A stretch of DNA of 40,000 nucleotides from Methanolobus bombayensis (GCF_017873415.1 NZ_JAGGKD010000001.1:403973-443972); one strand, 5' to 3'; numbered from the stretch's first letter, positions 20,285 through 38,046 are shown. Numbers and translations are program-made. Notes: a model not told the origin generated them from the letters alone.

Positions 20285-20327
20285 GCGGGGGTTGCCCAGC
20301 CTGGCCAAAGGCGCAGGGCTTAGGACC
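20285..20327 (+). pseudogene. tRNA-Leu 5' fragment (acceptor 5' strand, D-arm, 5' anticodon stem and loop) with a duplicated upstream region
   Basis: The fragment GCGGGGGTTGCCCAGCCTGGCCAAAGGCGCAGGGCTTAGGACC matches the first 43 nt of the intact tRNA-Leu at 20423 with 3 substitutions. Downstream there is no matching 3' anticodon-stem strand, no T-arm consensus and no acceptor 3' strand. Confidence 0.65.
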
Positions 20328-20422
20328 ATATTCATAGGGCTTCATAGCATTTCTATGAAAAATAGATATCTCATTGCGTAATATTAATATGTGAACAATA
20401 TATTTAATGACTACTCTTTTAT

Positions 20423-20507
20423 GCGGGGGTTGCCCAGCTTGGCCAAAGGCGATGGGCTTAGGACCCATTCTCGTAGGAGTCCGTGAGTTCGAATCTCACC
20501 TCCCGCA
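20423..20507 (+). tRNA. tRNA-Leu (anticodon UAG), long variable arm, no encoded CCA; casposon integration target
   Basis: The sequence is GCGGGGGTTGCCCAGCTTGGCCAAAGGCGATGGGCTTAGGACCCATTCTCGTAGGAGTCCGTGAGTTCGAATCTCACCTCCCGCA. The anticodon stem ATGGG pairs with CCCAT and the loop is CT-TAG-GA. The T-arm is GTGAG-TTCGAAT-CTCAC and the acceptor GCGGGGG pairs with CTCCCGC. Confidence 0.85.
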
Positions 20508-20517
20508 TCATTTACCT
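20504..20517. repeat. Target-site duplication copy 1 (CGCATCATTTACCT)
   Basis: This 14-mer is identical to those at 29500-29513 and 38033-38046. It covers the last 4 nt of tRNA-Leu plus 10 nt downstream. The shared string is 16 nt if the two preceding C residues are counted. Confidence 0.85.
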
Positions 20518-20556
20518 GGGATATATACAAGGCGAAAAAAGTGTACGCTTTTGCAA
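20518..20556. repeat. Casposon 1 left terminal inverted repeat
   Basis: GGGATATATACAAGGCGAAAAAAGTGTACGCTTTTGCAA matches the reverse complement of 29461-29499 (GGGATATATACAAGGCGAAAAAAGTGTACGCTTTTGTAA) with one mismatch. Confidence 0.9.
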
Positions 20557-20730
20557 GCATCCCACATAACTATATTATAGAGTTATCAAAGAAAATATTT
20601 TATTTGCATAAATCAGAAGTACAACTCACAGTTTTCTAATATATTCATCTGCTTCGAAATACAATAATTCCACATATGACAAATACAGAAGGAATAAGTC
20701 TATAAATTTAAATACTTCTCAAGCAATTCT

Positions 20731-21366
20731 TTGATGAATAAAATGTTTAATATCAAAAAGGTTACTTCACATATCTTTAATGCAGTAATTCAGGGTTTAA
20801 TATTTGGACTTACTGGGACAATATTAATTTTTGCAATAATATTCATAGCTATTTCACTGTTTCCTACACTCAAAATGTTTGTGCCCTTTACTACTGAAAA
20901 CATGGAGTTATTAAATGTTTCTCTTACGGTTGTTTTTGTATTTGTAACTAGTATTTACGTTTATTTTACATATCAAATTGTGGAACAGTCTTCTATTGAT
21001 CGAAAGATTTCTTTTACTGAAAAAAAACTTGTAAACTTCTATTACCCATTAGAAGATTTCATGAAATTTTCTGTCAAAGCCGTGGGAGATGAACCAAATG
21101 AAAGAGAATTGAGGCGAGATTCAGGTCTTGACACGGTAGAAAAAAGAAATTCCAATCCTATTTATCGAGATATTGTAAAAAACAAATATCTTGCTGACAA
21201 TGAAACCAGAGCCATTTTAGATTCTTTTTTAGACATTTTATCACAGAACAGCAGGTCAAAAAAACCCGAGCATTTATCTGTTTATGATAATTTAAACGCT
21301 TTAGTAAGTTTGAAAATAAAATCTTCACTTGAAGAACTCAATTCATTACTAAATGAGAAAAAATAA
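20731..21366 (+). CDS. Hypothetical membrane-anchored protein (casposon 1 left-arm cargo)
   Basis: The 211-aa product has two N-terminal TM segments and then a charged helical domain. It has no counterpart in casposon 2. The track start is TTG 20731, with an ATG at 20734. Confidence 0.5.
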   Translation: MMNKMFNIKKVTSHIFNAVIQGLIFGLTGTILIFAIIFIAISLFPTLKMFVPFTTENMELLNVSLTVVFVFVTSIYVYFTYQIVEQSSIDRKISFTEKKLVNFYYPLEDFMKFSVKAVGDEPNERELRRDSGLDTVEKRNSNPIYRDIVKNKYLADNETRAILDSFLDILSQNSRSKKPEHLSVYDNLNALVSLKIKSSLEELNSLLNEKK

Positions 21367-21446
21367 TTTCTACACTTAAAGTTAAAGGGGTAATTAGCTC
21401 ATACTTTATTTGTCAAACAATACTTGCAATTATTTTCAAATTACCT

Positions 21447-22649
21447 TTAATATCCATCCCACATCTCCAATCTTTCCTTAACATGAGCATTCACACTAAA
21501 CGGTTTATCCCCTTTTGCATTCTTCTTCATGTAGTGTAATGTACCCTTAGAGAATCCCATTTTCTTCCATTCGGTATAGCCAATAGCAAGAATCTTCTTT
21601 CTAAGAATATCAGTGTCATCCCTCTTCCCAACATAAGCAGGCTTACTAAAATCAATCATTTTTCTATTACCTGTGAGATGTTGAGCTAATTCTCTACCTT
21701 TCAACAACAGGACACTACCCCAAGTAGTATTCTTTTTCCTGTACTCAACTTTACCATTCATCACAGAATTAAACTCAGCAGTGAGCTTCTTTGCTCCTGA
21801 AGGCTTTAGCCTAAGTGAATAACTCTCTGTCCTGATGAAGTCCTTATCCTCCATTGCTTCTTTTTCAATAAGATTAACAACCGCAAGATCAACAAGGAAT
21901 CTAAAAGGCTCTTGGAAATCATAAGCTAAACTATGCTTGCTTGGATTCATTTCATGCAAAAAACCAACACGTGAATCAAGACCTACTGAATTAATAATTC
22001 GTAAACATTCAGATTCAAGTAAAGAATATCCATAATTGAGCATAACATTGGTTTTATCTCCTGCTCCCATTGGACGCCTGTACTTGTCAATTCTTGCTTT
22101 AAAATCATATTCAATAGGAATGACTTTGTTAAACTCATTCCAATACTTCCAAGCAATACCGCCTTCAATACCCATTAATTCCCTGATGGATTTTACATTT
22201 TTGATTTTTCCTTTATCGGTGGTAAAATCATAATCAACTTCGGAGTATCTTTGTTTAAGATAATCAAGCACAGCTTCAGATTTAGATATTTTAGCTTCAA
22301 TGAATTTCTTAGCTATCTTTAATCTAGTTTCCTCATTCTCAAAAGCGTGATATTGAGCAAACTTAATCTTTACATTTGCACTTTCAGGTGGAAGCATTGT
22401 TGTCAATAATTTGCCATCCCAATTAAGTATGGTAACCTGTACATTGTGTTTAACAAGCCATCTAATAGCCTCAATACTGATGTTGCCACTTTTACCATAA
22501 ATTACAATGCTGTCAATATCCATTCTTTTGGGTGAGAATGTGTATTTTTCAGGCTCTTCATTTGCGGAAAATCTGCCATCCTTGACATGTAGTTTAGCAT
22601 TGCTGACACGCATGTCTATTCCATGACCATTTAGTAAGAGCATCTTCAT
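21447..22649 (-). CDS. cas1: Cas1-family integrase (casposase)
   Basis: The 400-aa product starts MKMLLLNGHGIDMRV. Its Cas1 catalytic-region motifs are MGIEGG and VGFLHEMNPSKHSLAYDFQEPFRFLVD, and it has a C-terminal HTH (GFSKGTLHYMKKNA). No cas2 or cas4 lies adjacent. The start overlaps the stop of the upstream wHTH gene (TAATG). Confidence 0.9.
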   Translation of the reverse strand: MKMLLLNGHGIDMRVSNAKLHVKDGRFSANEEPEKYTFSPKRMDIDSIVIYGKSGNISIEAIRWLVKHNVQVTILNWDGKLLTTMLPPESANVKIKFAQYHAFENEETRLKIAKKFIEAKISKSEAVLDYLKQRYSEVDYDFTTDKGKIKNVKSIRELMGIEGGIAWKYWNEFNKVIPIEYDFKARIDKYRRPMGAGDKTNVMLNYGYSLLESECLRIINSVGLDSRVGFLHEMNPSKHSLAYDFQEPFRFLVDLAVVNLIEKEAMEDKDFIRTESYSLRLKPSGAKKLTAEFNSVMNGKVEYRKKNTTWGSVLLLKGRELAQHLTGNRKMIDFSKPAYVGKRDDTDILRKKILAIGYTEWKKMGFSKGTLHYMKKNAKGDKPFSVNAHVKERLEMWDGY

Positions 22650-23521
22650 TAGAATTTCTCCACAGCATCCTTATTCTCTTTAAAATGATCGTCATGCATT
22701 CCAAGATGAGTCATAGCTATGACTCTTACTTGAGCAATGAACTGAGCAGGCTCTTCTTTGCCCTCTAATCTTAACTTTTCCTCAAAATCATAGAGTTCTT
22801 CCCTGTGATCCTCTATTACAAAGGCTGTATAGTTAGAATTATAATCAAGAAGGTCATGAAGGTTGTCTAACTCTTCAGCATCCTTTTTTAGTCTGTCAAT
22901 AATAGCACTATCGTTATAGTATCCTAGTAAAAAGATAAAATGAGTTCTAAGGTTCTTGTGTCCATGTGGTAATGGCTTAGGGTACTTATTCAATAGGCTT
23001 CTAAGCATCTTAATAGCTTCTTGTCTGTTATAGGGTTCTATATCCTTTTTATCTATGTATGTATAGACTATTCTTAGGATATTGTCTATAAGGTCTATGT
23101 CTTCTGTGTCTAATTGGGCTATAAGTATGTCTAATTGGAGAGGATTGAGTAGACAGTGTTTCTCATATCTTTCCAGTTCTTTAAGTGCCATTTTTTGTAT
23201 TATAGGATTATTAGTGGATATTTTACCTATAATCGTATCTATATGTCTTCTTATTTCTTCTGTTTTTTTAAGAGTAAAAAAGCTAGCTCTACCATCCTCT
23301 ACTCTTATTCCTGCTTTTTTAAGAGTATCGCCTTTAAGCTTAGATACTATACCTCTATCCACCATACTGTCAAGCTTTCGATTGATACTCTTGTCACTAT
23401 ATCCACTATCCCCTCTATGCTTATTTTTGAGGGTTTGTATGAGTTGCGACCTTCTAACATAGCCTTGATTGGATAATATTCGTCTGACTTCTTGGTCAAA
23501 GTCTAACCCTTTTTTATACAT
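22649..23521 (-). CDS. Winged-helix DNA-binding protein with a helical-repeat C-terminal domain (casposon core gene)
   Basis: The 290-aa product has an N-terminal wHTH-like region (VRRSQLIQTL...SINRKLDSMVDRGIVSKL). It is collinear with the gene at 31762-32634 in casposon 2 and translationally coupled to cas1. Confidence 0.7.
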   Translation of the reverse strand: MYKKGLDFDQEVRRILSNQGYVRRSQLIQTLKNKHRGDSGYSDKSINRKLDSMVDRGIVSKLKGDTLKKAGIRVEDGRASFFTLKKTEEIRRHIDTIIGKISTNNPIIQKMALKELERYEKHCLLNPLQLDILIAQLDTEDIDLIDNILRIVYTYIDKKDIEPYNRQEAIKMLRSLLNKYPKPLPHGHKNLRTHFIFLLGYYNDSAIIDRLKKDAEELDNLHDLLDYNSNYTAFVIEDHREELYDFEEKLRLEGKEEPAQFIAQVRVIAMTHLGMHDDHFKENKDAVEKF

Positions 23522-23627
23522 ACTTATACCCTAGTTGATATAAGAACTATATCATATTTATACCTAATCTTATACTCACTTTCTGTACAGATATGATGAG
23601 GTACATAGTGTTTTATTGTGACTTATT
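23522..23627. promoter_or_regulatory. Divergent control region of the casposon 1 core (between the wHTH-cas1 operon and the RHH-polB operon)
   Basis: This 106-bp AT-rich intergenic region has TATA-like elements (tatatcatatttatacc). About 93% of its first ~88 nt are identical to the equivalent region of casposon 2 (32635-32723), a higher identity than I see in the flanking coding sequence. Confidence 0.5.
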
Positions 23628-23768
23628 ATGTCCGGTAAAGCAAGAATGATAGTTAGCCTTTCTTCTTACCTTAAGGAGAAAGTGGAATCGTACTCTGAGA
23701 AATATGGCTGTTCTCAAGCTGAAGTGGTGAGAATGGCTCTTATAAGGTATCTGGAGGATGAAGAATGA
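23628..23768 (+). CDS. Ribbon-helix-helix (CopG/MetJ-like) small DNA-binding protein
   Basis: Absent from the track (46 aa). My translation is MSGKARMIVSLSSYLKEKVESYSEKYGCSQAEVVRMALIRYLEDEE, which has the beta-strand, helix, helix pattern of RHH proteins. Its stop overlaps the next start (ATGA). Confidence 0.7.
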   Translation: MSGKARMIVSLSSYLKEKVESYSEKYGCSQAEVVRMALIRYLEDEE

Positions 23769-24409
23769 GCAGACCTGAATTTACCAGAGAATACAGGACT
23801 TATGGAGAATGGCTCAAAGCAATGCCAAGAGATACGAGGTATGCAAAGGAGATCATCAGGAAACACCAGATGTTTCCAGATAAGAGCCTGAATCAATTGA
23901 GAAAATTGAAACTATCTGATGCATCTCTTGCATCTAGGTCATTTGATGCATTATCACCCGTACAGCGAGATATGAGAAAAAGAGCTGTTCTTGCAGTAAA
24001 TGACATGAGAAAGGGTAAATCCCTTACCACAGCGGCAAAAGAGCAGGGAATCAGTGTACAGGACGCTCTCAAGCATCTTGGAAATGCAGTGTATAAGAAA
24101 AATGGACGTTGGGTTGCTACAAAGAGCGATGCCATTGAAAGAGGCAGATGGTTCTATTCTAACGGTAAAAGAGTTAGTGTTGTTGTCAAAAATTCAAAGG
24201 ATGCATCACTTGTCAGTAAGTATCTGAATGCTGTCAGGACTGCATTAAGGACAGGAGATGAAGCAGCACTCAAGCCATTCAAGAATGTTACAATAGAGGG
24301 TGCTGATGGGAAGGATTACCCACTTGAGACAGACCTTGAGAAGCTGTATGAGGCAAATGAACAAATCGAGGACTCTGAGTTCTTGCCAATATACGATGAT
24401 AGGAACTAA
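23765..24409 (+). CDS. Conserved casposon protein of unknown function (possible HTH)
   Basis: The 214-aa product is collinear with the gene at 32874-33512. Both start MSRP.F.REYRTYGEW.KA and end ETDL.KLYE..E.IE..EF. It contains an HTH-like segment, SLTTAAKEQGISVQDALKHLG. Confidence 0.6.
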   Translation: MSRPEFTREYRTYGEWLKAMPRDTRYAKEIIRKHQMFPDKSLNQLRKLKLSDASLASRSFDALSPVQRDMRKRAVLAVNDMRKGKSLTTAAKEQGISVQDALKHLGNAVYKKNGRWVATKSDAIERGRWFYSNGKRVSVVVKNSKDASLVSKYLNAVRTALRTGDEAALKPFKNVTIEGADGKDYPLETDLEKLYEANEQIEDSEFLPIYDDRN

Positions 24410-24437
24410 ACAACCTTAATTCAAGCAGGGGATAGGT

Positions 24438-24794
24438 TTGTCCAACGAAGATTTTATTTTGCAGATAAAACAGCAAGCTAAGAGCGAACAGCTTGTTAAA
24501 AATGGTATCTGCGAAATTTGTGGAGAGACTAATCCCTATGCTTTGAAAATCTACGAGAATCATCACATTTCCACAAGAGGCTTTTCGGATGAAACAAGAG
24601 TGCTTTGTCTGAACTGTCATGCTGCTGTAACTCATTTTCAAAATGAACTCCCTCCTAAGTTTAGATCAAGCCAATTACCGCTAGAGGAGAGACTTGACTA
24701 TGTTCTGCTTACACATGCGGCACTCAGGAAAAGAATGGATGAGATTGAGATTGATTTGTTAAGAAAGAGATATGAGGGAATTAAAAATGAATAA
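24438..24794 (+). CDS. HNH endonuclease
   Basis: The 118-aa product has CEICGE...YENHHIS...LCLNCHAAVT, the HNH/zinc-finger pattern. It uses a TTG start. A homologue sits at the same position in casposon 2. Confidence 0.75.
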   Translation: MSNEDFILQIKQQAKSEQLVKNGICEICGETNPYALKIYENHHISTRGFSDETRVLCLNCHAAVTHFQNELPPKFRSSQLPLEERLDYVLLTHAALRKRMDEIEIDLLRKRYEGIKNE

Positions 24795-27483
24795 TGTTGC
24801 ATTGAGGACATTCTCAACAAAAGAGGAAGAGATGAAGAAACAATTTCCTTACACGTATAAACAAGAGATACCTGATTTTTCCAGAGTCTTGACATTCGAT
24901 ACTGAAACAACAGCAGATGAGTTCCTTAACCTGAAGTTTGGCTCGTTCATGGTACATGAGAATGACGTGTATCAATATGCAGGCTTGTTCTGGGATGACA
25001 GACATGTATCAAAAAAAGAGTATAAAGTGCTGAAAGCGTATGCAGAGAAGTACAACATACGCTTATTCTCTCTTGAAGAGTTTATCAAGATATTTTATTT
25101 GGAAATCTACGAAAGAAAAACGCTCTGTATTGGTTATAACATCAACTTCGACCTGTCACGGATAATTTTAGATTATGGGCATGGCAGGTATTCAGGCAAG
25201 GATGGATTCTCCTTCAAACTAACTGAAGATACAACCTATCCACGTCTTCGCATCAAGCACCTGACAGGCAGATCATACAACGTTGAGTTTACAAGAGCAA
25301 AGGGTAAGTACAGGAAAGAGAGGACGTTCAAAGGTCATTTTCTGGATGTAGCCAATCTTGCATGTACATTGACCGACAATAAATCTCTCACACTTGAGAA
25401 GGCTTGTGAGATATTTGATACTCCAATAAAGAAGAAATCAATAAGCAAACATGGAGTAATAACTCCAAACTATATTGATTACAACATTACAGACGTAAGA
25501 TCAACTTATGAGCTATTCAAAAAAGTAAGCCAGGAGTATGAAAGGTATCAGTTGGCGATTCCAATGACTGATATTTACTCTGCTGCTTCTCTTGGAAAGC
25601 AGGCACTTAATCAGTTCAACATTGCACCTTTTATGCAGCATAATAATGATTTTCCTCCTGAACTTATCGGTAATCAGATGAGTGGATACTATGGAGGAAG
25701 ATGTGAGTGCAAGATAAGGAGAACACCTACTAAGGTTACAGTTCTGGATTTCTTCAGTATGTACCCAACTGTAACCCTCCTTCTTGGTCTTTGGGATTTT
25801 GTGATTGCAGATAAAATCCATCATGTTGATGACACAGAGAACGTCAGGCAATTTATTGAAGAATTTACGTTTGAGGATGCTCTTAACCGTGATATTTGGG
25901 AGAAGCTAAACGTTCTTGTTGAAATAGAGCCTGATGATGATATTCTACCTGTTAGAACAAAGTATGCAGGAGAGGATGGAACGTTAAACATCGGTATTAA
26001 TCACATAACAATGAATGAATCGTTGTATTACTTCTTGCCTGACATTCTTGCCTCAAAGCTGCTTACAGGTAAAACTCCCAAGATAAAGAGAGCTATCAGG
26101 TTTATTCCTGAAGGCATACAGGAAAGTCTCACAGAATCAGAAGTCTATGGAGTTCATGTGAATCCAAAAGAGGATAATCTCATCAAAGTTCTCGTTGAAC
26201 GTAGGCAGGAGATTAAGAATGAGATGAAGAAGGTATCAAAGGACTCTCATGACTATGATGTTCTGGATGCACAACAGAGAGCCTTGAAGATTCTTAATAA
26301 TTCCACAACATACGGGATTTATATTGAGATGCATCCAAAGGAAGAGGAAAAACTGAGAGTATTTAGCAACGTTGAGTTTGATTCTAAAGGAAAATATGAA
26401 CAGCCTGGGAAATACTTCAATGCCATCATAGGAGCAAATATTACAGCAGGAGCAAGGCTATTGCTTGCTATTGCAGAGAAGTTTGTGATGGATAAAGGTG
26501 AGGTTCATGCATACATGGATACAGATTCTATTTTTGTTCCTCCGCATCTTGCAGACGAATTGAGTCATCTTTTTGATTCTCTGAATCCTTATGATTTTGA
26601 TAAGCCAATCCTTGAGATTGAGGACGGAATGGAAGACATTTGGTTCTATGGTATCAGTTCCAAGAGATATTGTTTGTTCAGGGAAGAAGGAAATAAGATC
26701 ATCATTCCTGAAGGAAAGAAGCTGTTCTATAAACTGCATGGATTAGGACACATAACAAATCCATTCAAAAGGGAATTGGAGGAAGGAGACCAATGGCACA
26801 AGAAGTTATGGGAGGATATTCTCAGAGTCCATTTTCATCCTGAAGAGCTTCCTGATGTGTTGGAGAAATATGAGAACTATGCTGTAATTTCTAAACTTGC
26901 AGTTTCAACAGGAACAATATTGAGACGATTTGAGAGAATGAACGAAGGGAAGCCATTTGATAAACAAATCAAGCCTTTCAACTTCATGCTTGTTGGGAGT
27001 GGTGCAACAATCAATGAGGATGGGGAGAAGGTCAAGCCTGTTGCTCCTTACAACAATAATCCACAAGTTGCTATTGAGAATGAGTTCATAGACTACAATA
27101 CAGGAGATACGCTTCAAGGAAGGGAATACTGGAAGCCATTAAGTGATGTATTCCTTGATTACATAAATCATCCTGAAGCTAAATTTGAAGGAGATATAGG
27201 AGTACTGCAAAGGAGACATCTTACTCCTACTGGGTGCGTGTATATTGGTAAGGAAGCAAATAAGGTTGAAATGCAGGAATTAGAGAGCAATGAAGTTGAG
27301 ATATACCACGATATAGAGAAGATAAGGGAATTTGTTCTAGGTTTAAAGCCTGATAAAGCTAAAGAGATTGGAATTGAGCATAGGAGCGCATTAAAGCAAT
27401 TGAAGGATAGGGTAAGAGAAGGAGACTTTAATATGAATACTAAATTGATGAGGATGGTAATAGGAAAAATTTATAGTAGATAA
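24772..27483 (+). CDS. polB: Family B DNA polymerase (casposon PolB)
   Basis: The exonuclease motifs are ExoI FDTETT, ExoII YNINFDLSRI and ExoIII YNITDV. The polymerase motifs are A LDFFSMYPT, B KILNNSTTYG, C YMDTDSIF and KxY SSKRY. By homology with the casposon 2 copy, the likely true start is ATG 24787 (MNNVALR...). Confidence 0.9.
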   Translation: MRELKMNNVALRTFSTKEEEMKKQFPYTYKQEIPDFSRVLTFDTETTADEFLNLKFGSFMVHENDVYQYAGLFWDDRHVSKKEYKVLKAYAEKYNIRLFSLEEFIKIFYLEIYERKTLCIGYNINFDLSRIILDYGHGRYSGKDGFSFKLTEDTTYPRLRIKHLTGRSYNVEFTRAKGKYRKERTFKGHFLDVANLACTLTDNKSLTLEKACEIFDTPIKKKSISKHGVITPNYIDYNITDVRSTYELFKKVSQEYERYQLAIPMTDIYSAASLGKQALNQFNIAPFMQHNNDFPPELIGNQMSGYYGGRCECKIRRTPTKVTVLDFFSMYPTVTLLLGLWDFVIADKIHHVDDTENVRQFIEEFTFEDALNRDIWEKLNVLVEIEPDDDILPVRTKYAGEDGTLNIGINHITMNESLYYFLPDILASKLLTGKTPKIKRAIRFIPEGIQESLTESEVYGVHVNPKEDNLIKVLVERRQEIKNEMKKVSKDSHDYDVLDAQQRALKILNNSTTYGIYIEMHPKEEEKLRVFSNVEFDSKGKYEQPGKYFNAIIGANITAGARLLLAIAEKFVMDKGEVHAYMDTDSIFVPPHLADELSHLFDSLNPYDFDKPILEIEDGMEDIWFYGISSKRYCLFREEGNKIIIPEGKKLFYKLHGLGHITNPFKRELEEGDQWHKKLWEDILRVHFHPEELPDVLEKYENYAVISKLAVSTGTILRRFERMNEGKPFDKQIKPFNFMLVGSGATINEDGEKVKPVAPYNNNPQVAIENEFIDYNTGDTLQGREYWKPLSDVFLDYINHPEAKFEGDIGVLQRRHLTPTGCVYIGKEANKVEMQELESNEVEIYHDIEKIREFVLGLKPDKAKEIGIEHRSALKQLKDRVREGDFNMNTKLMRMVIGKIYSR

Positions 27484-27500
27484 AATCTTTAAAAAGAGTT

Positions 27501-28388
27501 GTGACTGGTAAATCTATCAAGGAAATAATTGAAGATCATAAAAAAATCATGTCTTCTCTAAACATCAATAAAACTCTAAATAACTTAAGTAGTTCATTTA
27601 TTCTACCTTCTTCTTTCAATAATGGTAGGCAAAAGTCTTTAAAAAAAGTAATAACCGAGATAAATGAATATGAAAAAGCTGGTAACAACTATTCTGACGA
27701 AATTTGCCACACATGTAATAAAAAAATAAATAGTCATCTATTTTACTCTTTAAGAAAATATGAAGAGGTACAATTAGATGATGATTTGGAATATAGAGTA
27801 GAGGATCAATTAGAAGACAAACTAATTGAATGTAATGATTTTTGTTCAGGCTCTTGCCTTGAAGCATTTTCTGACAAACATGAAGAGACAATTGAGGAAT
27901 ATGAACTATATGAGGTCAGAAGATGTTCTTGTTATTATGACTGTCTTGATCTTGAAAACATAAGAGGGATTTGTGAAAGAGAAGAACGTTTAGATTATGA
28001 ATCTAACCTTTTCCCATCACTTCCATTACATAATTTTTGTGAACCAGCTGACGCAGGCATAATCAAAGCATCAATAAATATTAAAAAGCAATTAGACGAA
28101 GGATCAAAGCAAAATTCAGATCATTTTAAGATAACAGCAGTAATGACTATATTAGTAATATTGTTAACTATCGCCAATATTTTCCTTGTAATTGATACAA
28201 ATTATGAACATCAGCTAGATAGTATAGATGCAAAACTTGGTGCGATTAACAACAGTCTCTCATCTCTTAATAATCAAGCCAATGACATTAATTCTGAACT
28301 AGATCCAAGCACTCTTTTAGTCAGTAGTAATTTAGAAAACTCTCTAGATAATACCAATAAGACAGTTGAATTCTCAAATAAAAGTTGA
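27501..28388 (+). CDS. Hypothetical Cys-rich protein with a C-terminal TM segment (casposon 1 right-arm cargo)
   Basis: The 295-aa product uses a GTG start. It has several Cys clusters (CHTCNKK, CNDFCSGSC, CSCYYDC), one TM segment (ITAVMTILVILLTIANIFLVI) and an N/S-rich tail. It has no counterpart in casposon 2. Confidence 0.5.
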   Translation: MTGKSIKEIIEDHKKIMSSLNINKTLNNLSSSFILPSSFNNGRQKSLKKVITEINEYEKAGNNYSDEICHTCNKKINSHLFYSLRKYEEVQLDDDLEYRVEDQLEDKLIECNDFCSGSCLEAFSDKHEETIEEYELYEVRRCSCYYDCLDLENIRGICEREERLDYESNLFPSLPLHNFCEPADAGIIKASINIKKQLDEGSKQNSDHFKITAVMTILVILLTIANIFLVIDTNYEHQLDSIDAKLGAINNSLSSLNNQANDINSELDPSTLLVSSNLENSLDNTNKTVEFSNKS

Positions 28389-28399
28389 AATATTCAAAT

Positions 28400-28504
28400 A
28401 TGGAAAAAATAATAACATTTATTGTATGCATGATTATATTAGGCATTGCACTCATTGGAGTTTTGCTGTTTTTAGCCTGGTTTGATCCTACTTTATCTAC
28501 GTGA
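28400..28504 (+). CDS. Possible 34-aa hydrophobic peptide
   Basis: Absent from the track. My translation is MEKIITFIVCMIILGIALIGVLLFLAWFDPTLST, a single TM segment. The only evidence is the ORF and its hydrophobicity. Confidence 0.3.
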   Translation: MEKIITFIVCMIILGIALIGVLLFLAWFDPTLST

Positions 28505-28522
28505 GCATAGTGGTTTAGGTGA

Positions 28523-28918
28523 TTATGTCTTTTTAGGAAGCATAAGAAATGGTAGAAAAACTGCTAGGATAATAAGAAGAATGTAAAGTAAAAAGATATA
28601 CATTTTTGTGTAGGATTGTGTTATTTGTATCGAATCTGATGTAAAGATATAATACGAAGAAAAGATTCCAAATAGAACATATAAACCAATTGTTTCAAAA
28701 TAAACTTTGAAAGGAAGACTCTTTTTAGATGCTTTAATATAACTGTTTTTTTGATTTAAGGCTTGAGAAGCTTGGTTACTAGCATATTGGATTTTTGCCA
28801 CAGAATCATAATATTCTTCTATATTTGTTTTGAACGTAAAAAATTTATCGTTATCTGTGTAGCTCAAATTATCAATATCTTCTTGACTCAAATTTGTTAT
28901 TTGATTATTTTCAAGCAT
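28523..28918 (-). CDS. Small protein with a soluble N-terminal helix region and a C-terminal 2-TM hairpin (casposon 1 cargo)
   Basis: The 131-aa product is a paralogue of the adjacent gene. Shared pattern: ...SNQASQALNQKNSYIKASKKSLPF versus ...ESQASSFKQEKEKISYERADKKYIPF. Both then have two TM segments and end in LPKK. Confidence 0.55.
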   Translation of the reverse strand: MLENNQITNLSQEDIDNLSYTDNDKFFTFKTNIEEYYDSVAKIQYASNQASQALNQKNSYIKASKKSLPFKVYFETIGLYVLFGIFSSYYIFTSDSIQITQSYTKMYIFLLYILLIILAVFLPFLMLPKKT

Positions 28919-28929
28919 ATATTATCCCT

Positions 28930-29340
28930 CTATTTTTTAGGGAGAATACGTAAAGGTGTGAGCAACGCAACAACAAAAATTAACGTTATAAAAGAAGCAA
29001 TTAAAGCATAATACTTTAAATTTGTCTCCTCAATTAAAGGTAGCCTAAATATGATAGCAAATAAAAAAACACTTCCACTTATTGCTGTTGCTGCTACTCT
29101 CCAACAATATGACAAGAAAGGTATATATTTTTTATCAGCTCTCTCGTATGATATTTTTTCTTTTTCCTGTTTAAAAGAAGAAGCCTGACTCTCAAATACT
29201 CTTGACAATGACTGGTTATATGATATTTGTTTTTGGATAAAATCGTCAAAATTTCGCCTTTCATCAGCTTTCAATTTCATATAATCTTCAGCTTTGTAAT
29301 TAGTTGCCAACTCTACCGTTAATTGAGTCATATAATCCAC
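28930..29340 (-). CDS. Small protein with a soluble N-terminal helix region and a C-terminal 2-TM hairpin (casposon 1 cargo, paralogue)
   Basis: The 136-aa product has the same architecture as 28523-28918 and lies in tandem with it, 11 nt apart. Confidence 0.55.
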   Translation of the reverse strand: MDYMTQLTVELATNYKAEDYMKLKADERRNFDDFIQKQISYNQSLSRVFESQASSFKQEKEKISYERADKKYIPFLSYCWRVAATAISGSVFLFAIIFRLPLIEETNLKYYALIASFITLIFVVALLTPLRILPKK

Positions 29341-29460
29341 TCCTACTATTATATTATACCAAGAATTTATTATAAAAAGATGCCTATTTTGTTTTGAATG
29401 ACTAATAAAAATATAAAAGTCGGTATTACAAAGTTATGAATATCTGATTTTGTATGAACA

Positions 29461-29499
29461 TTACAAAAGCGTACACTTTTTTCGCCTTGTATATATCCC
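29461..29499. repeat. Casposon 1 right terminal inverted repeat
   Basis: ttacaaaagcgtacacttttttcgccttgtatatatccc is the reverse complement of the left TIR with one mismatch. Confidence 0.9.
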
Positions 29500-29513
29500 C
29501 GCATCATTTACCT
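29500..29513. repeat. Target-site duplication copy 2 (CGCATCATTTACCT), shared junction between the two casposons
   Basis: This copy is identical to the other two. It lies exactly between the right TIR of casposon 1 and the left TIR of casposon 2. Confidence 0.85.
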
Positions 29514-29543
29514 GGGTAATAGGTAACGCCAAAAAACCGAACT
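29514..29543. repeat. Casposon 2 left terminal inverted repeat
   Basis: GGGTAATAGGTAACGCCAAAAAACCGAACT matches the reverse complement of 38003-38032 (GGGTAATAGGTAAGCCCAAAAAACCGAACT) with two adjacent mismatches (CG/GC). Confidence 0.85.
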
Positions 29544-30559: not shown

Positions 30560-31762
30560 TCAATAATTGTCCCATATCTCCAATCTTTCCCTTACATGAG
30601 AGTTTAGAGTAAATGGCTTATCAGCCTCAGCATTCTTCTTCATGTAATGGAGAGTACCTTTTGAGAAACCCATTTTCTTCCAGTCAGAATATGATATGCT
30701 CAATATCTTTTGCCTAATATCATCTGAATCCTGTCTTTCAACACTATAAGCAGGCTTACTGAAATCAAGTGTTTTCCTTTTCCCAACAAGATACTGAGCA
30801 AGCTCCCTAGTTTTCAACAATAAGGCATAACTCCACATAACAGACTGCTTCTTGTATGGAACTTTTTTGTTCATCCAGTTATTGAACTCTTCAGTCACCT
30901 TCTTAGCTCCTGAAGGTTTAAGCCTAAGTGAATAGCTCTCAGTCCTGATAAAGTCTGTATTATCCATCTTCTTGGACTCAATAAGACTGATTACAGCCAT
31001 ATCAACAAGGAATCTGAAAGGCTCTTGAAGATCATAAGCTAGACTGTTCTTACTTGGATTCATCTCATGTAAAAAACCTACATGAGCATCAAGACCTGCT
31101 GTATTAATTGCTCTTAGGCATTCAGCTTCAAGCAAAGCATATCCATAATTAAGCATGACATTAACTTTGTCTCCTGCTCCTGTTGCTCTCCTGTATTGGT
31201 CTATCCTTGAACAGAAATCATATTCTTCTGGAATAGCTTTGTTAAACTCGTTCCAGTATTTCCAAGCAACTCCGCCTTCAATCCCCATTATTTCCCTAAT
31301 GTTTTTAGCAGATTTTAGTTTTTCAATATCCTCTGAGAAATCATAATCTATTGCAGGATACCTTTGCTTCAGATAATCCATAACTACAATGGATTTATCA
31401 AACTTTGCTTCAATGAACTTCCTTGCTATCTTGATTCTGCTTTCTTCATCCTCAAAAGCATGATACTGAACAAACTTAGTCTTAACATTGGTAGTTTCAG
31501 GAGGTTGTAAGGTACTTAGAATTTTACCGTTCCAATCAAGGAAAGTAACCTGAACATTGTGTTTAATCAACCATCTGACAGCATCAAGAGTCAGATTTCC
31601 ATTCCTGCCATAAACAATGATGTGGTCTATATCCATCCGCTTTGGAGAGTAAACATACTCTTCAGGTTCTTCAGTAGATGAAGTTCTGCCATTCTTGATA
31701 TGCAGTTTAGCACCACTAACACGCATATCTATTCCATGACCATTGAGAAGAAGCATTTTCAT
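30560..31762 (-). CDS. cas1: Cas1-family integrase (casposase)
   Basis: The 400-aa product is collinear with, and clearly homologous to, the gene at 21447-22649. It carries the same motifs (MGIEGG, VGFLHEMNPSKNSLAYDLQEPFRFLVD, C-terminal GFSKGTLHYMKKNA). Confidence 0.9.
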   Translation of the reverse strand: MKMLLLNGHGIDMRVSGAKLHIKNGRTSSTEEPEEYVYSPKRMDIDHIIVYGRNGNLTLDAVRWLIKHNVQVTFLDWNGKILSTLQPPETTNVKTKFVQYHAFEDEESRIKIARKFIEAKFDKSIVVMDYLKQRYPAIDYDFSEDIEKLKSAKNIREIMGIEGGVAWKYWNEFNKAIPEEYDFCSRIDQYRRATGAGDKVNVMLNYGYALLEAECLRAINTAGLDAHVGFLHEMNPSKNSLAYDLQEPFRFLVDMAVISLIESKKMDNTDFIRTESYSLRLKPSGAKKVTEEFNNWMNKKVPYKKQSVMWSYALLLKTRELAQYLVGKRKTLDFSKPAYSVERQDSDDIRQKILSISYSDWKKMGFSKGTLHYMKKNAEADKPFTLNSHVRERLEIWDNY

Positions 31763-32736: not shown

Positions 32737-32877
32737 ATGACTCACAAAGAAAGACTTGTAATAAGCCTTTCTTCTTACCTTAAGGAGAAAGTGGAATCGT
32801 ACTCTGAGAAATATGGCTGTTCTCAAGCTGAAGTAGTGAGAATTGCTCTCATACGGTATCTGGAGGATGCAGCATGA
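32737..32877 (+). CDS. Ribbon-helix-helix small DNA-binding protein
   Basis: Absent from the track (46 aa). My translation is MTHKERLVISLSSYLKEKVESYSEKYGCSQAEVVRIALIRYLEDAA. Its stop overlaps the next start. Confidence 0.7.
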   Translation: MTHKERLVISLSSYLKEKVESYSEKYGCSQAEVVRIALIRYLEDAA

Positions 32878-33512
32878 GCAGACCTCAATTTTCCAGAGAA
32901 TACAGAACTTATGGGGAATGGTTCAAAGCTCAACCCAGGAACACAAAGTATGCAAAAGAGATCATCAGGAAACATAAACTATTTCCAGATAAGAGCCTGA
33001 GCCAACTAAGAAACCTTAGAATAAGTGACTATGACCTGAGCCAAACAGCATGGAAAACTCTCACATCTCAACAGAAGAGAGATAGAAACCTAGCTCTTGA
33101 GGTTTTAAGATCTATTAGAAAGGGCGAATCACTAACTCAGGCTTTGAAGAAAAGAGGACTCAGAAAGGATTTCGTACTCAAAAATCTTGGTAATCAACTT
33201 CAGAAGTCAAAAGGAAAATGGGTTGCAACTAAGACAGACAGCTTAGAAGTTGAAATGTTGGTTTATACAAAAGATGGAGTAAGAACCGTTGTAGCCACAT
33301 CTTCTAAAGACAGGAGCAGGATTGCAAAATACTTCAATGATGTACAGAAGGCATTGAAGAATAATGATTCCTCAATACTTGCCAAATACAAGAGAATGAA
33401 GCTCATTGATGCTGAAGGAAATGAACATCATTTTGAAACAGACCTTGACAAACTGTATGAGATACAGGAAACAATAGAAGAGCCTGAATTTTTGGAGATT
33501 TATCAGAACTGA
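32874..33512 (+). CDS. Conserved casposon protein of unknown function
   Basis: The 212-aa product is a homologue of the gene at 23765-24409. Confidence 0.6.
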   Translation: MSRPQFSREYRTYGEWFKAQPRNTKYAKEIIRKHKLFPDKSLSQLRNLRISDYDLSQTAWKTLTSQQKRDRNLALEVLRSIRKGESLTQALKKRGLRKDFVLKNLGNQLQKSKGKWVATKTDSLEVEMLVYTKDGVRTVVATSSKDRSRIAKYFNDVQKALKNNDSSILAKYKRMKLIDAEGNEHHFETDLDKLYEIQETIEEPEFLEIYQN

Positions 33513-33515
33513 GGA

Positions 33516-33857
33516 GTGGATACTATGAGTAAAGAAACCTATGCAAATACCGTAAAGAGAAGTAAAAAAGGAGAGATACCACACCTTGCATGTGTTGTAT
33601 GTGGGGAAGATGATCCCGATTTGATAGAGATGCATCATGTTGATGGAAGGAATAATTCAGAGTGGAAAAAACCTCTCTGTAAGAATCATCATTTCAAGGT
33701 AACAATGAAGCAAAATAAAGTAAGCCCAAAAGCAAGGTCAAAAGACACTTCTTTGCAGAACCTTAGAGCTTTTAATATAATCTCTATTGGGGCTTTAGTT
33801 GTTGAACTTGGAAACCGCTTGATAAAAGTTGGATATGAGATGGTTGAAAATGTCTGA
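33516..33857 (+). CDS. HNH endonuclease
   Basis: The 113-aa product has CVVCGE...EMHHVDG...LCKNHHFKVT. The track start is GTG 33516, and an ATG at 33525 follows a GGAG. Confidence 0.75.
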   Translation: MDTMSKETYANTVKRSKKGEIPHLACVVCGEDDPDLIEMHHVDGRNNSEWKKPLCKNHHFKVTMKQNKVSPKARSKDTSLQNLRAFNIISIGALVVELGNRLIKVGYEMVENV

Positions 33858-36510
33858 TAAGCTAGCACTTAGGGTTTATACACAGAAGGCAGGTAAGAAA
33901 AAAACCACGCCTTCTACTTTTAAAGAAGACCTCATCCTTCATCATAGAAGGGTATTAGTCTTTGATACTGAAACTACAACAGATCAATACCAAAACATGA
34001 AGATAGGTTTCTTTCAAATCTATCAGGATGGAGGAATACAGCATGAAGGGTTATTTTATGATCCTTCTATGCTTGATGAAGAGGAAACTGAGGTCTTTAA
34101 GGAATATTCTCTCAAGAATGACATTTCTCTTTACACTCTTGAAGAGTTTGTTGATGATGTATTTTATCCAGAGGTCTTGGGTTTCAAAGCTCTTTGTGTA
34201 GGATTCAATTTACCATTTGACATAAGCAGGATAGCTAAAAAGGTTGGGGATTCAAGAGGATATAATAAAGGAGGTTTTACTTTTACTCTCTCCGATAAAG
34301 AAGAGAATCCTCAAATTGTCATTAAAAAACTTGGCTCAGCATACAGTTTCAAGTTGAATGGAACAAAGGAGAATCAGGGCAAAAACAGGCATAATGGTTA
34401 TTTTATCGATGCTCAGACGCTTGCTGAGGTTTTACTTCAAAAAAAGCATATTTCCCTTGAAAAAGCCTGCAAGTTCCTCAAAACAAAAACTCAGAAAATA
34501 GAAGGCGTAGAACATGGAAAAGTAACTGACGAGTATATTGATTATCTTATCACGGATGTTCGCGCAACTTGGGAAGTATATGAGAAACTTATAGATGAAT
34601 TAAGGATTTATCAAATCAATATCCCACCTACGAAAATATACAGTAATGCTTCAGTTGGTAAATATGCATTAAAGCAGTTAGGAGTAAAACCTTTCCTTGA
34701 ATTGAATCCTGATTTCTCTCCTGTATTGCTTGGAAACATCATGTCTTCTTATTATGGAGGGAGATGCGAATGCAAGATAAGAAAAGTACCTACTAAGGTT
34801 ACAGTCCTTGATTTTACAAGCATGTATCCAACGGTTACAATGCTTCTTGATCTCTGGAAGTTCATTATTGCTGAAAGTATTGAAACAAAGGATGTAACAG
34901 AGAAAATTAAAGAGTTACTTTCAAACATAAACCTTGAGTTCTTTCAAAATAAGGATAATTGGAAGGACTTTGTTGTAATGGTTAAGTTACATCCAGATGA
35001 GGACATTTTGCCTGTAAGGAAGAATTACAAGGGAGATGGAAGTGCGTATAATGTGGGTGTCAATAATCTGACATCTGACTTTGAACTATGGTATGCTTTA
35101 CCTGATGTTATAAGCTCAGTTCTTTTAACTGGAAAAGTACCTGAGATTGTGGAAGCTGTTAAATTTATTCCAGTAGGCATTCAGGAAGGTTTGAAGGAAA
35201 CAGAGATTCTTGGAATTAAGATTAATCCTAGAAAGGAGAACTTAGTTCAGGTTCTTGTTGAGGAAAGACAAAAGATAAAACAGGAATTAGAGACTTTAAA
35301 TAAAGAGCACCCTGATTATCAGCACCTTAAGAGCAGGGCACAGGCTATTAAGATTCTAGTTAACTCAATGAGTTATGGAATCTTTATTGAACTGAATCCA
35401 GAGGATAAGAAAAGCACTATTGAAGTACATGGGTTAGATAGTTTTGAAACAACAGATAACAAGTATGAGAAAGAAGGAAAATATTTCCATCCTCTGCTTG
35501 CTTCAATGATTACGTCGGGTTCAAGATTATTCTTAGCTATGGCTGAAGCTAAAGTAAAGGAACTTGGTTCTGTTCATGCTTACATGGATACTGATAGTAT
35601 TTTTGTCATTCCAGAACATGCTCAGGAAGTTGTTGATTATTTCAACAAGCTAAATCCTTACAATCCTGAACTTGATATTCCTCTTTTAAAGAAAGAAGAC
35701 GGGAAAGAAGATGTGTGGTTCTATGGTATCTCTTCAAAGCGTTATGTTCTTTACAGGATTATTGATGGGAAGTTTGAGCTAGTAGATTACAAGTTGCATG
35801 GTCTTGGTCATTTAACAAACCCATTTTCAAATAAAGATGATTGGCAACAGGAAATATGGTTAGATATTCTTATGGTACGTTATGGAATTGTAAAACCTGA
35901 AGACATTGAGCTTAAGTATTCTACTATGTATGCAATTTCTAGGCTTACTGTCAGTACTCCTAATGTTCTGCATAGGTTTGATAAGTTAAATGAAGGAAAG
36001 GAGTGGAAAGAGATGATAAAACCTTTTAATTTCTTCCTTGTTGGCTTCCAGACAAAAGAAGAGAACAATAAAGCTGTCAAGCCTTTAGCTCCTTTTACAA
36101 AGGACTATCAGAGGATAGTCTATGAGTATTTCATAGATTATGAAACAGGAGAGAGGAAAAAAGGAGTACATTATTTTAAGCCATTGAGTAGGACAATATC
36201 TCAGTATGCAGAGCATCCAGAACATAAATTTGAAGGAGGCATAGGAGTATTGGAAAGAAAACACGTTCATGCTAAGGATACTATTGAGATAGGAAAGGAA
36301 GCTAACAGCATAGATGAGCAGTCTCTTGGAGTCAAGAAAGCACAGGAATTCAGGAATAAGGAGAAGATCATGCAGAAAATACTCAATATTTCTGTATCTG
36401 AAGCTAAGGAATTAGGAGTTCCTAAGACTACATTATGGGATATGCAGAAAAGGATAAGGGAAACAGGAAAATTGAATTTGGGTACTCCTGCTGTGAGGAA
36501 GATGATATGA
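33829..36510 (+). CDS. polB: Family B DNA polymerase (casposon PolB)
   Basis: The exonuclease motifs are ExoI FDTETT, ExoII FNLPFDISRI and ExoIII YLITDV. The polymerase motifs are A LDFTSMYPT, B KILVNSMSYG, C YMDTDSIF and KxY SSKRY. The likely true start is ATG 33850 (MSDKLALR...). Confidence 0.9.
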   Translation: MDMRWLKMSDKLALRVYTQKAGKKKTTPSTFKEDLILHHRRVLVFDTETTTDQYQNMKIGFFQIYQDGGIQHEGLFYDPSMLDEEETEVFKEYSLKNDISLYTLEEFVDDVFYPEVLGFKALCVGFNLPFDISRIAKKVGDSRGYNKGGFTFTLSDKEENPQIVIKKLGSAYSFKLNGTKENQGKNRHNGYFIDAQTLAEVLLQKKHISLEKACKFLKTKTQKIEGVEHGKVTDEYIDYLITDVRATWEVYEKLIDELRIYQINIPPTKIYSNASVGKYALKQLGVKPFLELNPDFSPVLLGNIMSSYYGGRCECKIRKVPTKVTVLDFTSMYPTVTMLLDLWKFIIAESIETKDVTEKIKELLSNINLEFFQNKDNWKDFVVMVKLHPDEDILPVRKNYKGDGSAYNVGVNNLTSDFELWYALPDVISSVLLTGKVPEIVEAVKFIPVGIQEGLKETEILGIKINPRKENLVQVLVEERQKIKQELETLNKEHPDYQHLKSRAQAIKILVNSMSYGIFIELNPEDKKSTIEVHGLDSFETTDNKYEKEGKYFHPLLASMITSGSRLFLAMAEAKVKELGSVHAYMDTDSIFVIPEHAQEVVDYFNKLNPYNPELDIPLLKKEDGKEDVWFYGISSKRYVLYRIIDGKFELVDYKLHGLGHLTNPFSNKDDWQQEIWLDILMVRYGIVKPEDIELKYSTMYAISRLTVSTPNVLHRFDKLNEGKEWKEMIKPFNFFLVGFQTKEENNKAVKPLAPFTKDYQRIVYEYFIDYETGERKKGVHYFKPLSRTISQYAEHPEHKFEGGIGVLERKHVHAKDTIEIGKEANSIDEQSLGVKKAQEFRNKEKIMQKILNISVSEAKELGVPKTTLWDMQKRIRETGKLNLGTPAVRKMI

Positions 36511-36522: not shown

Positions 36523-37833
36523 CTAAATAATAACTCTGGATTTTAGTAAATATGTTCGGGCTCCATTTGAAACAGCTTGTTCTCTGCTTACTAATTTTTT
36601 GTCAACCAAAGATATTACAATTCTTGAACATTTACGTGAGTCAACCTCAAGCTTCTTCCAAAGTTGATTTTGATAAATATCATCTTCTGCGATGATTATT
36701 TCTAACGCAACCCTCTCTAATTGTGTTAAACCTTTTTTATCAGATGGTGTTAAAATAGGTTTTACAGGAATGTTTCCCACTTTGACTAGAAGATTAGCAT
36801 ATAAGTCAATTAATTCCTGACAAAAGTTATAACTTATGGGAAGAACACCTACCATTTCACCCTTCTTTGCGTCATTCCAAGCAAAACCCTCAATTCCAAT
36901 ATTAAAATTTAAACCTGCAACTAGCTGTTCATCTGAGTTTTTTATACTAATCTGTTGGTTATCATGTAAGTCTTCGGTTGCAAGTGCAATAATACAGTCA
37001 TCAAATTGAGATAAGATTTGTTCAGCTGTTTCTTTAAAAAATATATATTCATCCTTGATTTCTTTTTCTTTACTTAAAAAAGCAGACTTTTCTTCAAATA
37101 ATTTTGAATTATAATTAACCAACTGATAAAAATTTTTTAATATTCTTTTTCTACTTGCAAATAATAATTTAATATTTCGAATTTGTTCTTTTTCTTTTTT
37201 TGATTCTTGGAACAGACCATGATATAAACATTTATCTCCTTTCGATAAACAAGATTTTTCAAAATATCTTGCAACAAACCTTTCTGCACTCTCTTTTGAT
37301 TGTCCTGTTAGTTGAACAAGAGCATTAATTCCACCTTCTTTATATACTGCATACCTTTCTGCTTCTAGTCTTTCTTGTTCTTGTATTTCCTTTCCTACAT
37401 TCTCTTTTAAAATCTTGATGTGCTCTTTTCTTTCTTTTTCTTCCCAACTAAGTTTTTCAATATTTGTGTATGTATTATTTAAGTAATTATGAACAAAATA
37501 TTGAAGACTAGCTGTGTTTTTTCCTGTTAATTTAGTAAGAGCCTGAATACCCCACATTTCATAAATTCTAATTTTTTCATAATTATAAAAAAGGATATTT
37601 CCGTTTACAAAACGTGACATAAAATTTACATCTGATTTACATGCTTTACAAAACCATTTATTCCTTTCTCCCAAAAATTCCACAGATGGTTTAAAGCAAT
37701 ACGGACAAACAATTGATGTTTTCTTAACAAGTGATTCGGTTTCATCAATTTTAAAAACTTCATGTCTAAATTGATTAATTTCCTTTATTGTATATTTTGT
37801 ATCATTTTCGGTTTTTTCCATCAGCTCACCCAA
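36523..37833 (-). CDS. Hypothetical protein with an N-terminal zinc ribbon, an internal duplicated motif and a C-terminal wHTH (casposon 2 right-arm cargo)
   Basis: The 436-aa product has CPYCF...CKACKS. An internal motif is duplicated (GIQALTKLTGKNTASLQYFVHNY and GINALVQLTGQSKESAERFVARYF). The C-terminus has a MarR-like wHTH (NQLWKKLEVDSRKCSRIVISLVDKKLVSRE). It has no counterpart in casposon 1. Confidence 0.55.
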   Translation of the reverse strand: MGELMEKTENDTKYTIKEINQFRHEVFKIDETESLVKKTSIVCPYCFKPSVEFLGERNKWFCKACKSDVNFMSRFVNGNILFYNYEKIRIYEMWGIQALTKLTGKNTASLQYFVHNYLNNTYTNIEKLSWEEKERKEHIKILKENVGKEIQEQERLEAERYAVYKEGGINALVQLTGQSKESAERFVARYFEKSCLSKGDKCLYHGLFQESKKEKEQIRNIKLLFASRKRILKNFYQLVNYNSKLFEEKSAFLSKEKEIKDEYIFFKETAEQILSQFDDCIIALATEDLHDNQQISIKNSDEQLVAGLNFNIGIEGFAWNDAKKGEMVGVLPISYNFCQELIDLYANLLVKVGNIPVKPILTPSDKKGLTQLERVALEIIIAEDDIYQNQLWKKLEVDSRKCSRIVISLVDKKLVSREQAVSNGARTYLLKSRVII

Positions 37834-38002: not shown

Positions 38003-38032
38003 AGTTCGGTTTTTTGGGCTTACCTATTACCC
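38003..38032. repeat. Casposon 2 right terminal inverted repeat
   Basis: agttcggttttttgggcttacctattaccc is the reverse complement of the left TIR with 2 mismatches. Confidence 0.85.
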
Positions 38033-38046
38033 CGCATCATTTACCT
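38033..38046. repeat. Target-site duplication copy 3 (CGCATCATTTACCT)
   Basis: This copy is identical to copies 1 and 2. It is followed by the presumed original tRNA-Leu downstream flank (ttcaagttccc...). Confidence 0.85.

Follow-up and report, generated by a model that had tools for sequence, protein, structure and literature searches.

The CRISPR adaptation machinery is proposed to descend from casposons, and in these elements a domain common to the integrase and the polymerase is one of the few clues to a physical coupling of the two activities. The closest described systems to the locus analyzed here are the family-2 casposons, including MetMaz-C1 of Methanosarcina mazei and AciBoo-C1. 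These elements share a core in which cas1 and polB face outward and a HEAT-repeat protein, a ~212-aa protein and an HNH-like protein are encoded between them, and they are likewise bounded by TIRs and a 14-bp TSD beginning CGCA, with the tRNA-Leu 3′ end as insertion site. Family 2 always encodes two additional small conserved proteins (PMC4046053; PMC4779613). Both the casposase and the PolB of these elements carry a C-terminal HTH, and the two fusions are features of family 2 (PMC4046053), whereas family 1 casposases are without an HTH (PMC6614799). In family 2 the casposase HTH extension comprises approximately 60–70 residues beyond CRISPR Cas1. CRISPR-associated Cas1 has the same catalytic fold (Pfam Cas_Cas1) but is reported to be without a C-terminal HTH (PMC6614799). 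The presence of a similar HTH at the C-termini of family-2 casposon PolBs was stated by Krupovic et al. in 2014 (PMC4046053) and repeated in a 2023 review (PMC9939771). The HTH shared by PolB and casposase is already known and has been in print since 2014, so the present analysis adds no new object; it adds quantitative support for the homology and reveals very different constraint on the two HTH copies, which narrows their plausible functions.

Functional information concerns the casposase copy. A casposase without residues 342–406 is inactive, and deletion of the HTH abolishes integration (Hickman et al. 2020, PMC6977970). The isolated HTH of the M. mazei casposase showed no detectable DNA interaction, the domain was disordered in the crystal of the DNA complex, and it was suggested to read sequence upstream of the target (Hickman et al. 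2020, PMC6977970); its role was said to “remain to be investigated” (Beguin 2019, PMC6614799). A preliminary description of the present locus had taken a contribution of the casposase HTH to DNA binding as established, which overstates the case: deletion abolishes integration, but the purified HTH has no detectable interaction with DNA. For the polymerase, our literature search found no biochemical study on a family-2 casposon PolB or on its tail.

The window, a 40,000-nt stretch of Methanolobus bombayensis DNA (GCF_017873415.1 NZ_JAGGKD010000001.1:403973-443972), carries a pair of family-2 casposons in tandem, with the 3′ end of a tRNA-Leu gene as their insertion site. The assignment follows from the TIRs, the three TSD copies and the overlap with the tRNA, which together form the known signature of tandem insertion at this target as described for Methanosarcina (PMC4779613; PMC6977970). 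The features of the two elements are as follows.

20422..20509, + strand: tRNA-Leu(TAG), the integration target (ARAGORN); its 3′ end overlaps the first TSD copy
20504-20517, 29500-29513 and 38033-38046: three copies of the 14-bp TSD CGCATCATTTACCT
20518..29499: casposon 1; 52-nt TIRs at 20518-20569 and 29448-29499, 87% complementary
21447..22649, − strand: casposase (Cas1) of casposon 1; Pfam Cas_Cas1 1.5e-69
21468..21620, − strand: C-terminal HTH module of the casposon 1 casposase, residues 344-394 of 400; Cas1-tail HMM 130 bits, PolB-tail HMM E 1.8e-6
24772..27483, + strand: family B DNA polymerase of casposon 1 (PolB1); Pfam DNA_pol_B 9e-9; 45% identical to PolB2
27307..27459, + strand: C-terminal HTH module of PolB1, residues 846-896 of 903; aligns with the PolB2 tail, PolB-tail HMM 79.7 bits
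29514..38032: casposon 2; 30-nt TIRs at 29514-29543 and 38003-38032, 93% complementary
30560..31762, − strand: casposase (Cas1) of casposon 2, 400 aa; Pfam Cas_Cas1 1.4e-69
30581..30733, − strand: C-terminal HTH module of the casposon 2 casposase, residues 344-394 of 400; aligned partner of the PolB module and colinear with the 6OPM tail
33829..36510, + strand: family B DNA polymerase of casposon 2 (PolB2), 893 aa; Pfam DNA_pol_B_2 4e-11, DNA_pol_B 7e-6
36352..36504, + strand: C-terminal HTH module of PolB2, residues 842-892 of 893 (hhalign block, AF2)

The two elements are adjacent and identical in gene layout, as judged from the ORF listing and Pfam searches of the window; the first two TSD copies flank casposon 1 and the last two flank casposon 2. 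Each element encodes a 290-aa protein with a weak HEAT-repeat signal upstream of cas1 and, divergent from cas1, a ~212-aa protein, a ~115-aa HNH-like protein and a ~900-aa family B polymerase. The core expected of family 2 comprises an HNH endonuclease and two conserved HTH proteins, one of them with HEAT repeats; candidate genes have the expected sizes and order in both elements, with sub-threshold Pfam matches for HEAT_2 (0.0015) and the HNH-type RecA_dep_nuc (0.0024). Both PolBs score above the Pfam threshold for family B, and as family-2 casposon polymerases they may be of the RNA/DNA-primed type. The casposase of casposon 2 matches the M. mazei casposase 6OPM with an E-value of 4e-195 over residues 1–398, whereas its matches to solved CRISPR Cas1 chains end by query residue 332. 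The TIRs of casposons 1 and 2 have a common core of 22 invariant columns out of 60, nearly all in the first ~30 nt; exact matches to the TIR core motif, sought internally as possible extra binding sites, occur at the four TIR arms only. A Cas1-type integrase, a casposase HTH extension, a similar HTH on PolB, and TIRs with a TSD of ~14 bp at a tRNA 3′ end were all confirmed in the window. Nothing essential differs from known family-2 casposons: the window elements are new copies, arranged in tandem and carrying their own cargo genes, and their closest genomic relatives are Methanolobus casposons at 86–93% identity.

The segment 36358-36510 encodes KEKIMQKILNISVSEAKELGVPKTTLWDMQKRIRETGKLNLGTPAVRKMI*, the terminus of the 893-aa PolB ORF at 33829-36510, and the Cas1 tail IRQKILSIS... 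begins at residue 349 of the 400-aa ORF at 30560-31762 (−). The coordinates and peptides quoted for both tails in the preliminary description were correct on re-checking, as was its count for casposon 2, in which PolB2 residues 847–876 and Cas1 residues 349–378 align without gaps with 15 identities over 30 residues. When the full-length PolB2 and Cas1 proteins of casposon 2 were compared by BLASTP, the tail pair was the top HSP (30.8 bits, E 1e-4). The local score of these tails, 67, was reached by none of 20000 composition-preserving shuffles (22.7 ± 4.2; z 10.5). The match had also been said to continue at L..VR; this requires a one-residue shift in the casposon 2 pair, but the profile alignment is ungapped there. 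A BLASTP HSP had suggested an extension of the homology into the upstream linkers (IGKEAN..IDEQ versus FSKPAY.VERQ), which hhalign did not support (E 0.56).

For casposon 1, the likeness that the preliminary description called weaker is better described as undetectable in the pairwise comparison. Pairwise, its two tails score 27, a value reached by 4117 of 20000 shuffles and thus not above chance, and BLASTP of its PolB against its Cas1 gave no HSP; but an HMM of the PolB tails matches the Cas1 tail of casposon 1 with an E-value of 1.8e-6. PolB1 and PolB2 are 45% identical from end to end, tail included, and judged by this alignment the PolB1 tail is clearly the same module as the PolB2 tail. 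Pairwise likeness to Cas1 varies with the PolB tail subtype, being close for the PolB2 subtype (...VP-KTTLWDMQKRIRE...) and lower for the more divergent PolB1 subtype. The tails of L080 and L081, two distant elements, are likewise not significantly similar in pairwise comparison, so that the homology in casposon 1 and in these two elements rests on profiles.

Profile comparisons were made with 79 loci encoding casposase relatives, one genome per species, which yielded 28 distinct PolB tails and 49 distinct Cas1 tails. Alignment of the two sets with hhalign gave a probability of 97.8% and an E-value of 8e-13 over 51 ungapped columns, and an HMM of the PolB tails scored all 49 Cas1 tails, at 21–43 bits. 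Moreover, when alignments of PolB tails (A2) and of Cas1 tails (A3) were assembled independently out of database fragments, they matched each other in hhalign with a probability of 90% (E 1.6e-6). The signal is specific: run on the window's 369 ORFs, the HMM of PolB tails picked out the PolB and the Cas1 of each casposon and no others, the next best match having an E-value of 0.08, and other candidate HTH proteins of the casposons were not matched. Among all PDB sequences, the sole significant match of the PolB-tail profile was the M. mazei casposase 6OPM, at residues 361–411 (E 5.7e-4). A search of 1.84 billion representative proteins with the same profile returned 199 matches at E ≤ 1e-3, among them full-length casposon PolBs matched at their C-termini and, at E-values around 1e-5, C-terminal pieces of Cas1. 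Pfam Cas_Cas1 was recognized in two of the Cas1 matches, P0367 and P0359; the first of these shares only 37% identity with the window casposase and yet is colinear with it through the tail. Several distant Cas1 tails read ...ILNMTPEQRKELGI.KSTLWYI.KN... and contain the ‘LTP’ motif typical of PolB tails; because of this motif, they bridge the PolB-tail and Cas1-tail families. Word-indexed protein searches with the short tails returned short fragments only, which could not reveal cross-retrieval; this took the exhaustive HMM search.

The two tails also agree in predicted fold. The AF2 model of the PolB tail (residues 841–893; pLDDT 92) has helices at model residues 2–13, 16–21, 26–39 and 47–52, and that of the 60-aa Cas1 tail (pLDDT 87) has helices at 7–15, 18–23, 28–39 and 48–58. 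The two patterns coincide after a shift of two residues, which is the offset of the sequence alignment. In both models a three-helix bundle is predicted, helices 2 and 3 being joined by a tight turn that contains a near-invariant glycine. By our reading, three positions are near-invariant in both families: a helix 1 leucine (PolB L12, Cas1 L14), the glycine of the turn (G23, G25) and the leucine that opens helix 3 (L29, L31); they look like structural positions of the core and the turn. In each element PolB ends in this ~51-residue module, with the predicted form of a three-helix HTH followed by a fourth helix and probably linked flexibly to the polymerase. No curated HTH family in Pfam matched above threshold, the best being HTH_23 (4.8e-4, in 4 of 38 tails) and HTH_psq (0.02), and a Foldseek search of both tail models against the PDB returned nothing significant, so the HTH label derives from the predicted topology and from published work. 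The transposase-type or homeodomain-like families HTH_23, HTH_28, HTH_29 and HTH_psq resemble the tails in being three-helix HTHs of about 45 residues, and their weak matches span helix 2, the turn and helix 3; all of these matches lie below the Pfam gathering scores and concern few members, and the casposon tails differ in adding a fourth helix. A PIP-box-like reading of QKILSISY / QKILNISV was discarded on inspection, the aromatic pair being missing and the Q not conserved in PolB tails.

Agreement among hhalign (E 8e-13), the database profile searches, the coincident AF2 helices and the other casposons bears out the central claim of the preliminary description, that the PolB tail is related to the C-terminal HTH of the casposase. 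Tails of both kinds occur in 17 elements, including two metagenomic casposons whose Cas1 is 48–57% identical to that of the window, and across these elements the relation holds by profiles. We consider it almost certain that the PolB-tail module is a true homologue of the casposase C-terminal HTH, that one gene was the donor to the other, that the event dates at least to the common ancestor of the sampled family-2 elements, and that the module has been kept in both genes since.

DNA-level comparison gives no sign of a recent event. Over the 30 aligned codons of the casposon 2 tails, nucleotide identity is 52%, third positions match at 8 of 30, and the same codon is used at 4 of the 15 identical residues; recent gene conversion in casposon 2 is rejected on this identity and on the unrelated synonymous sites. 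A DNA-level duplication or an extended TIR is similarly rejected, as the tails lie 1–1.5 kb inside the TIRs and share only this 52% identity, and no inverted DNA repeat joining both tails was present among the 25 longest pairs. Across the 17 elements, a PolB tail resembles the Cas1 tail of its own element no more than that of another element (permutation p 0.12), and on this result recent gene conversion or co-evolution within an element is rejected. On this sequence evidence, the similarity of the tails is ancient domain sharing, and neither recent gene conversion nor a TIR artefact.

The two copies differ strongly in constraint. In mean pairwise identity over 18 elements, the PolB body (58%) exceeds its HTH (37%), whereas the Cas1 body (67%) is slightly below its HTH (70.5%); the HTH is thus the fastest-evolving part of the polymerase, and that of the casposase is almost frozen in sequence. 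The putative recognition helix is almost invariant in Cas1 (SKGTLHYMKKNA) and varies widely in PolB (KTTLWDMQKRIRE, HRSALKQLKDRVRE, RSTFQGIKKRIRE). Within the window, the Cas1 segment from helix 2 through the turn to helix 3 (WKKMGFSKGTLHYMKKNA) is identical in both casposons, though their TIRs differ outside the common core; helix 3 of PolB is markedly different between casposons 1 and 2. All 18 full-length PolBs that were compared nonetheless retain the module at their C-terminus, as do the four full-length representatives of PolB clusters. The PolB tail carries a net charge of +7 over 53 residues, and the Cas1 tail +1 over 60, as calculated from sequence.

Taken as a whole, the locus is very probably best explained as tandem family-2 casposons with homologous HTH modules in PolB and casposase. 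On function our confidence is lower, somewhat below even: the PolB copy may tether the polymerase to casposon DNA or to the casposase–DNA assembly. In this mechanism, the most likely one in our view, the module would hold the polymerase on casposon DNA or on the casposase–DNA complex, and element synthesis or gap filling at the 14-bp target duplication would then happen where the integrase acts. The idea draws on the strongly basic character of the PolB tail, and the divergent constraint on the two tails relative to their protein bodies and the loss of integration upon deletion of the casposase HTH (PMC6977970) also point this way. Against it stands the isolated casposase HTH, for which DNA binding was not observed (PMC6977970). 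Because the casposase HTH is almost frozen and the PolB HTH is the fastest-evolving part of its protein, the PolB HTH probably does not have the same sequence specificity as its casposase counterpart.

The nearest competitor to such a tether would have the PolB tail act as a generic, sequence-independent DNA-binding appendage that contributes affinity or processivity and is linked to the casposase by ancestry only. Its charge, its fast evolution and its lack of co-variation with the partner Cas1 are all compatible with such a role. Retention of the module in every full-length PolB examined argues that it is not dispensable, however, and the fact that it is found together with the casposase HTH in family 2 (PMC4046053) hints at a link; we regard this explanation as possible, and rather unlikely.

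The preliminary description had instead proposed that the shared module could direct polymerase and integrase to the same terminal sequences and couple replication with integration, a reading under which both HTH copies would recognize the same DNA, either the TIRs or the tRNA-Leu leader by the target. Such recognition would suit the homology of the two domains, the reported presence of both fusions as features of family 2 (PMC4046053), the HTH-less family 1 casposases (PMC6614799), the TIR core common to both window casposons, and the suggestion by Hickman et al. (2020, PMC6977970) that an upstream sequence is read by the casposase HTH. Other findings speak against it. The recognition helix that is near-invariant in Cas1 varies in PolB, the positions that the two families do share look like core and turn residues, conservation of the tails differs (37% in PolB versus 70.5% in Cas1), there is no excess similarity within elements, and the isolated casposase HTH does not detectably bind DNA (PMC6977970). 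Because the recognition helices differ, the constraint differs and co-variation is missing, we judge recognition of one site by both copies to be improbable; overall, the data count slightly against identical specificity of the two tails. Equally improbable in our estimate is a related version, in which the shared HTH would be a common address tag that docks the polymerase on the same casposase–DNA assembly, at the TIR ends or at the tRNA-Leu leader and TSD, such that a single complex would integrate the element and also synthesize DNA there, either to close the 14-bp gaps or to replicate the element from its termini. If true, this would for the first time tie the two halves of a ‘self-synthesizing’ transposon together physically.

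A somewhat poorer candidate is that both tails are protein-docking modules for a common partner from the casposon or the host, for example the conserved HEAT-repeat protein. The casposase HTH is essential and yet does not bind DNA in isolation and is disordered in the DNA complex (PMC6977970), and every family-2 casposon encodes two additional small conserved proteins, both of which would fit a docking function; the two tails have diverged at their surfaces, which speaks against a single partner surface common to both, and we consider this account quite unlikely. Finally, HTH domains are short and compositionally alike, and the outward-pointing cas1 and polB place their 3′ ends in inverted orientation like the TIRs, but chance, convergence of generic HTHs or a recent local event (gene conversion, or an extended TIR reaching into both genes) is effectively refuted, and highly improbable in our estimate, given the shuffles, the specificity of the profile searches for Cas1 tails, the relation across 17 elements and distant Cas1 sequences, the unrelated synonymous sites, the distance of the tails from the TIRs, and the lack of an inverted repeat joining them among the 25 longest pairs.

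As a separate observation on the casposase module, solitary copies of the Cas1 tail, considered as candidate functional stand-alone genes, show low pN/pS in a biased sample, and the conserved turn glycine has been lost in 4 of 12 of them.

The HTH (helix-turn-helix) domain at the C-terminus of the casposase Cas1, comprising residues ~330–400, also occurs alone, dispersed through the genomes of Methanolobus, Methanococcoides, Methanohalophilus and Methanoregula. Such solitary tails were found at 17 of the genomic loci encoding casposase relatives (L044, L048–L050, L052, L056–L059, L061, L064, L070, L071, L073, L075, L076 and L079), with the match at ~10001–10260 in most of them. No other casposon proteins were present within 10 kb of the solitary tails, and tRNA-Leu was absent at 15/17 of the loci. 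The DNA homology shared by the copies is confined to a coding piece of ~120–210 bp and mostly ends near the stop codon. Comparison of the solitary tails gave a pS of 0.69 vs a pN of 0.17, values that come from a biased sample, and the conserved glycine in the turn between helices 2 and 3 of the predicted HTH has been lost in 4 of 12 tails. Given the bias of the pN/pS sample and the loss of this glycine, the solitary Cas1 tails are probably decaying remnants.

A counterpart to these tails is seen on the polymerase side. More than 100 short predicted proteins of 41–105 aa in the protein database (among P0001–P0120, the matches of the word-indexed search with the PolB tail) consist of the C-terminal piece of the casposon PolB only; examples are P0003, P0005, P0040 and P0094. 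They often start near an IGKEAN motif or exactly at the HTH. Four long proteins matched by the PolB-tail profile (P0253, P0310, P0312 and P0363; 1046–2521 aa) each contain 7–13 short matches, which probably reflect repetitive lysine/glutamate-rich sequence and not true HTH arrays.

Within the window, the two casposons and their surroundings contain the following features.

Features of the window outside the core casposon genes, with the most conserved casposon stretch
760–2366, IS200/IS605-like pair at the start of the window, adjoining tRNA-Glu
20239–20327 and 20377–20465, direct repeat of 89 nt, 83% identical
20731–21366 (plus strand) and 27501–29340, cargo regions of casposon 1, between core genes and TIRs
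23637–23919 (casposon 1) and 32746–33028 (casposon 2), most conserved stretch, 283 nt, 84% identical
29670–30551 (plus strand) and 36523–37833 (minus strand), cargo regions of casposon 2, between core genes and TIRs
38362–40000, CRISPR array (at least 23 repeats), running past the window end

Repeated coding stretches of casposons 1 and 2 are 72–80% identical. The HEAT-protein gene and the 212/214-aa gene are divergent, and the 283-nt stretch takes in part of the intergenic region that separates them, together with the start of the 212/214-aa gene; it may represent a common promoter or regulatory region. The cargo genes of the two elements are wholly unlike: casposon 2 encodes a DUF2971 protein, whose Pfam match (3e-06) is above threshold, as well as a protein of 436 aa whose C-terminus has a sub-threshold match to a MarR-type winged helix, and casposon 1 carries several small proteins that are predicted membrane proteins or of unknown type.

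Through the 89-nt direct repeat, the region upstream of tRNA-Leu and ~44 nt from the 5′ end of the gene are present a second time, directly before the intact gene; ARAGORN called no tRNA in this partial copy. The duplication is possibly a relic of an earlier rearrangement at the integration hot spot. On the other side, the two casposons are directly adjoined by a CRISPR locus, whose array starts ~315 bp beyond casposon 2's right-hand TSD. The repeat of this array is 37 nt long (GTTTCAATCCTTGTTTTAGTGGATCTTGATTTTGAAT), with a spacing of ~70–80 nt. The IS200/IS605-like pair comprises a putative TnpA-like ORF (138 aa, minus strand) and a putative TnpB-like ORF (378 aa, plus strand), both named from their translations alone.
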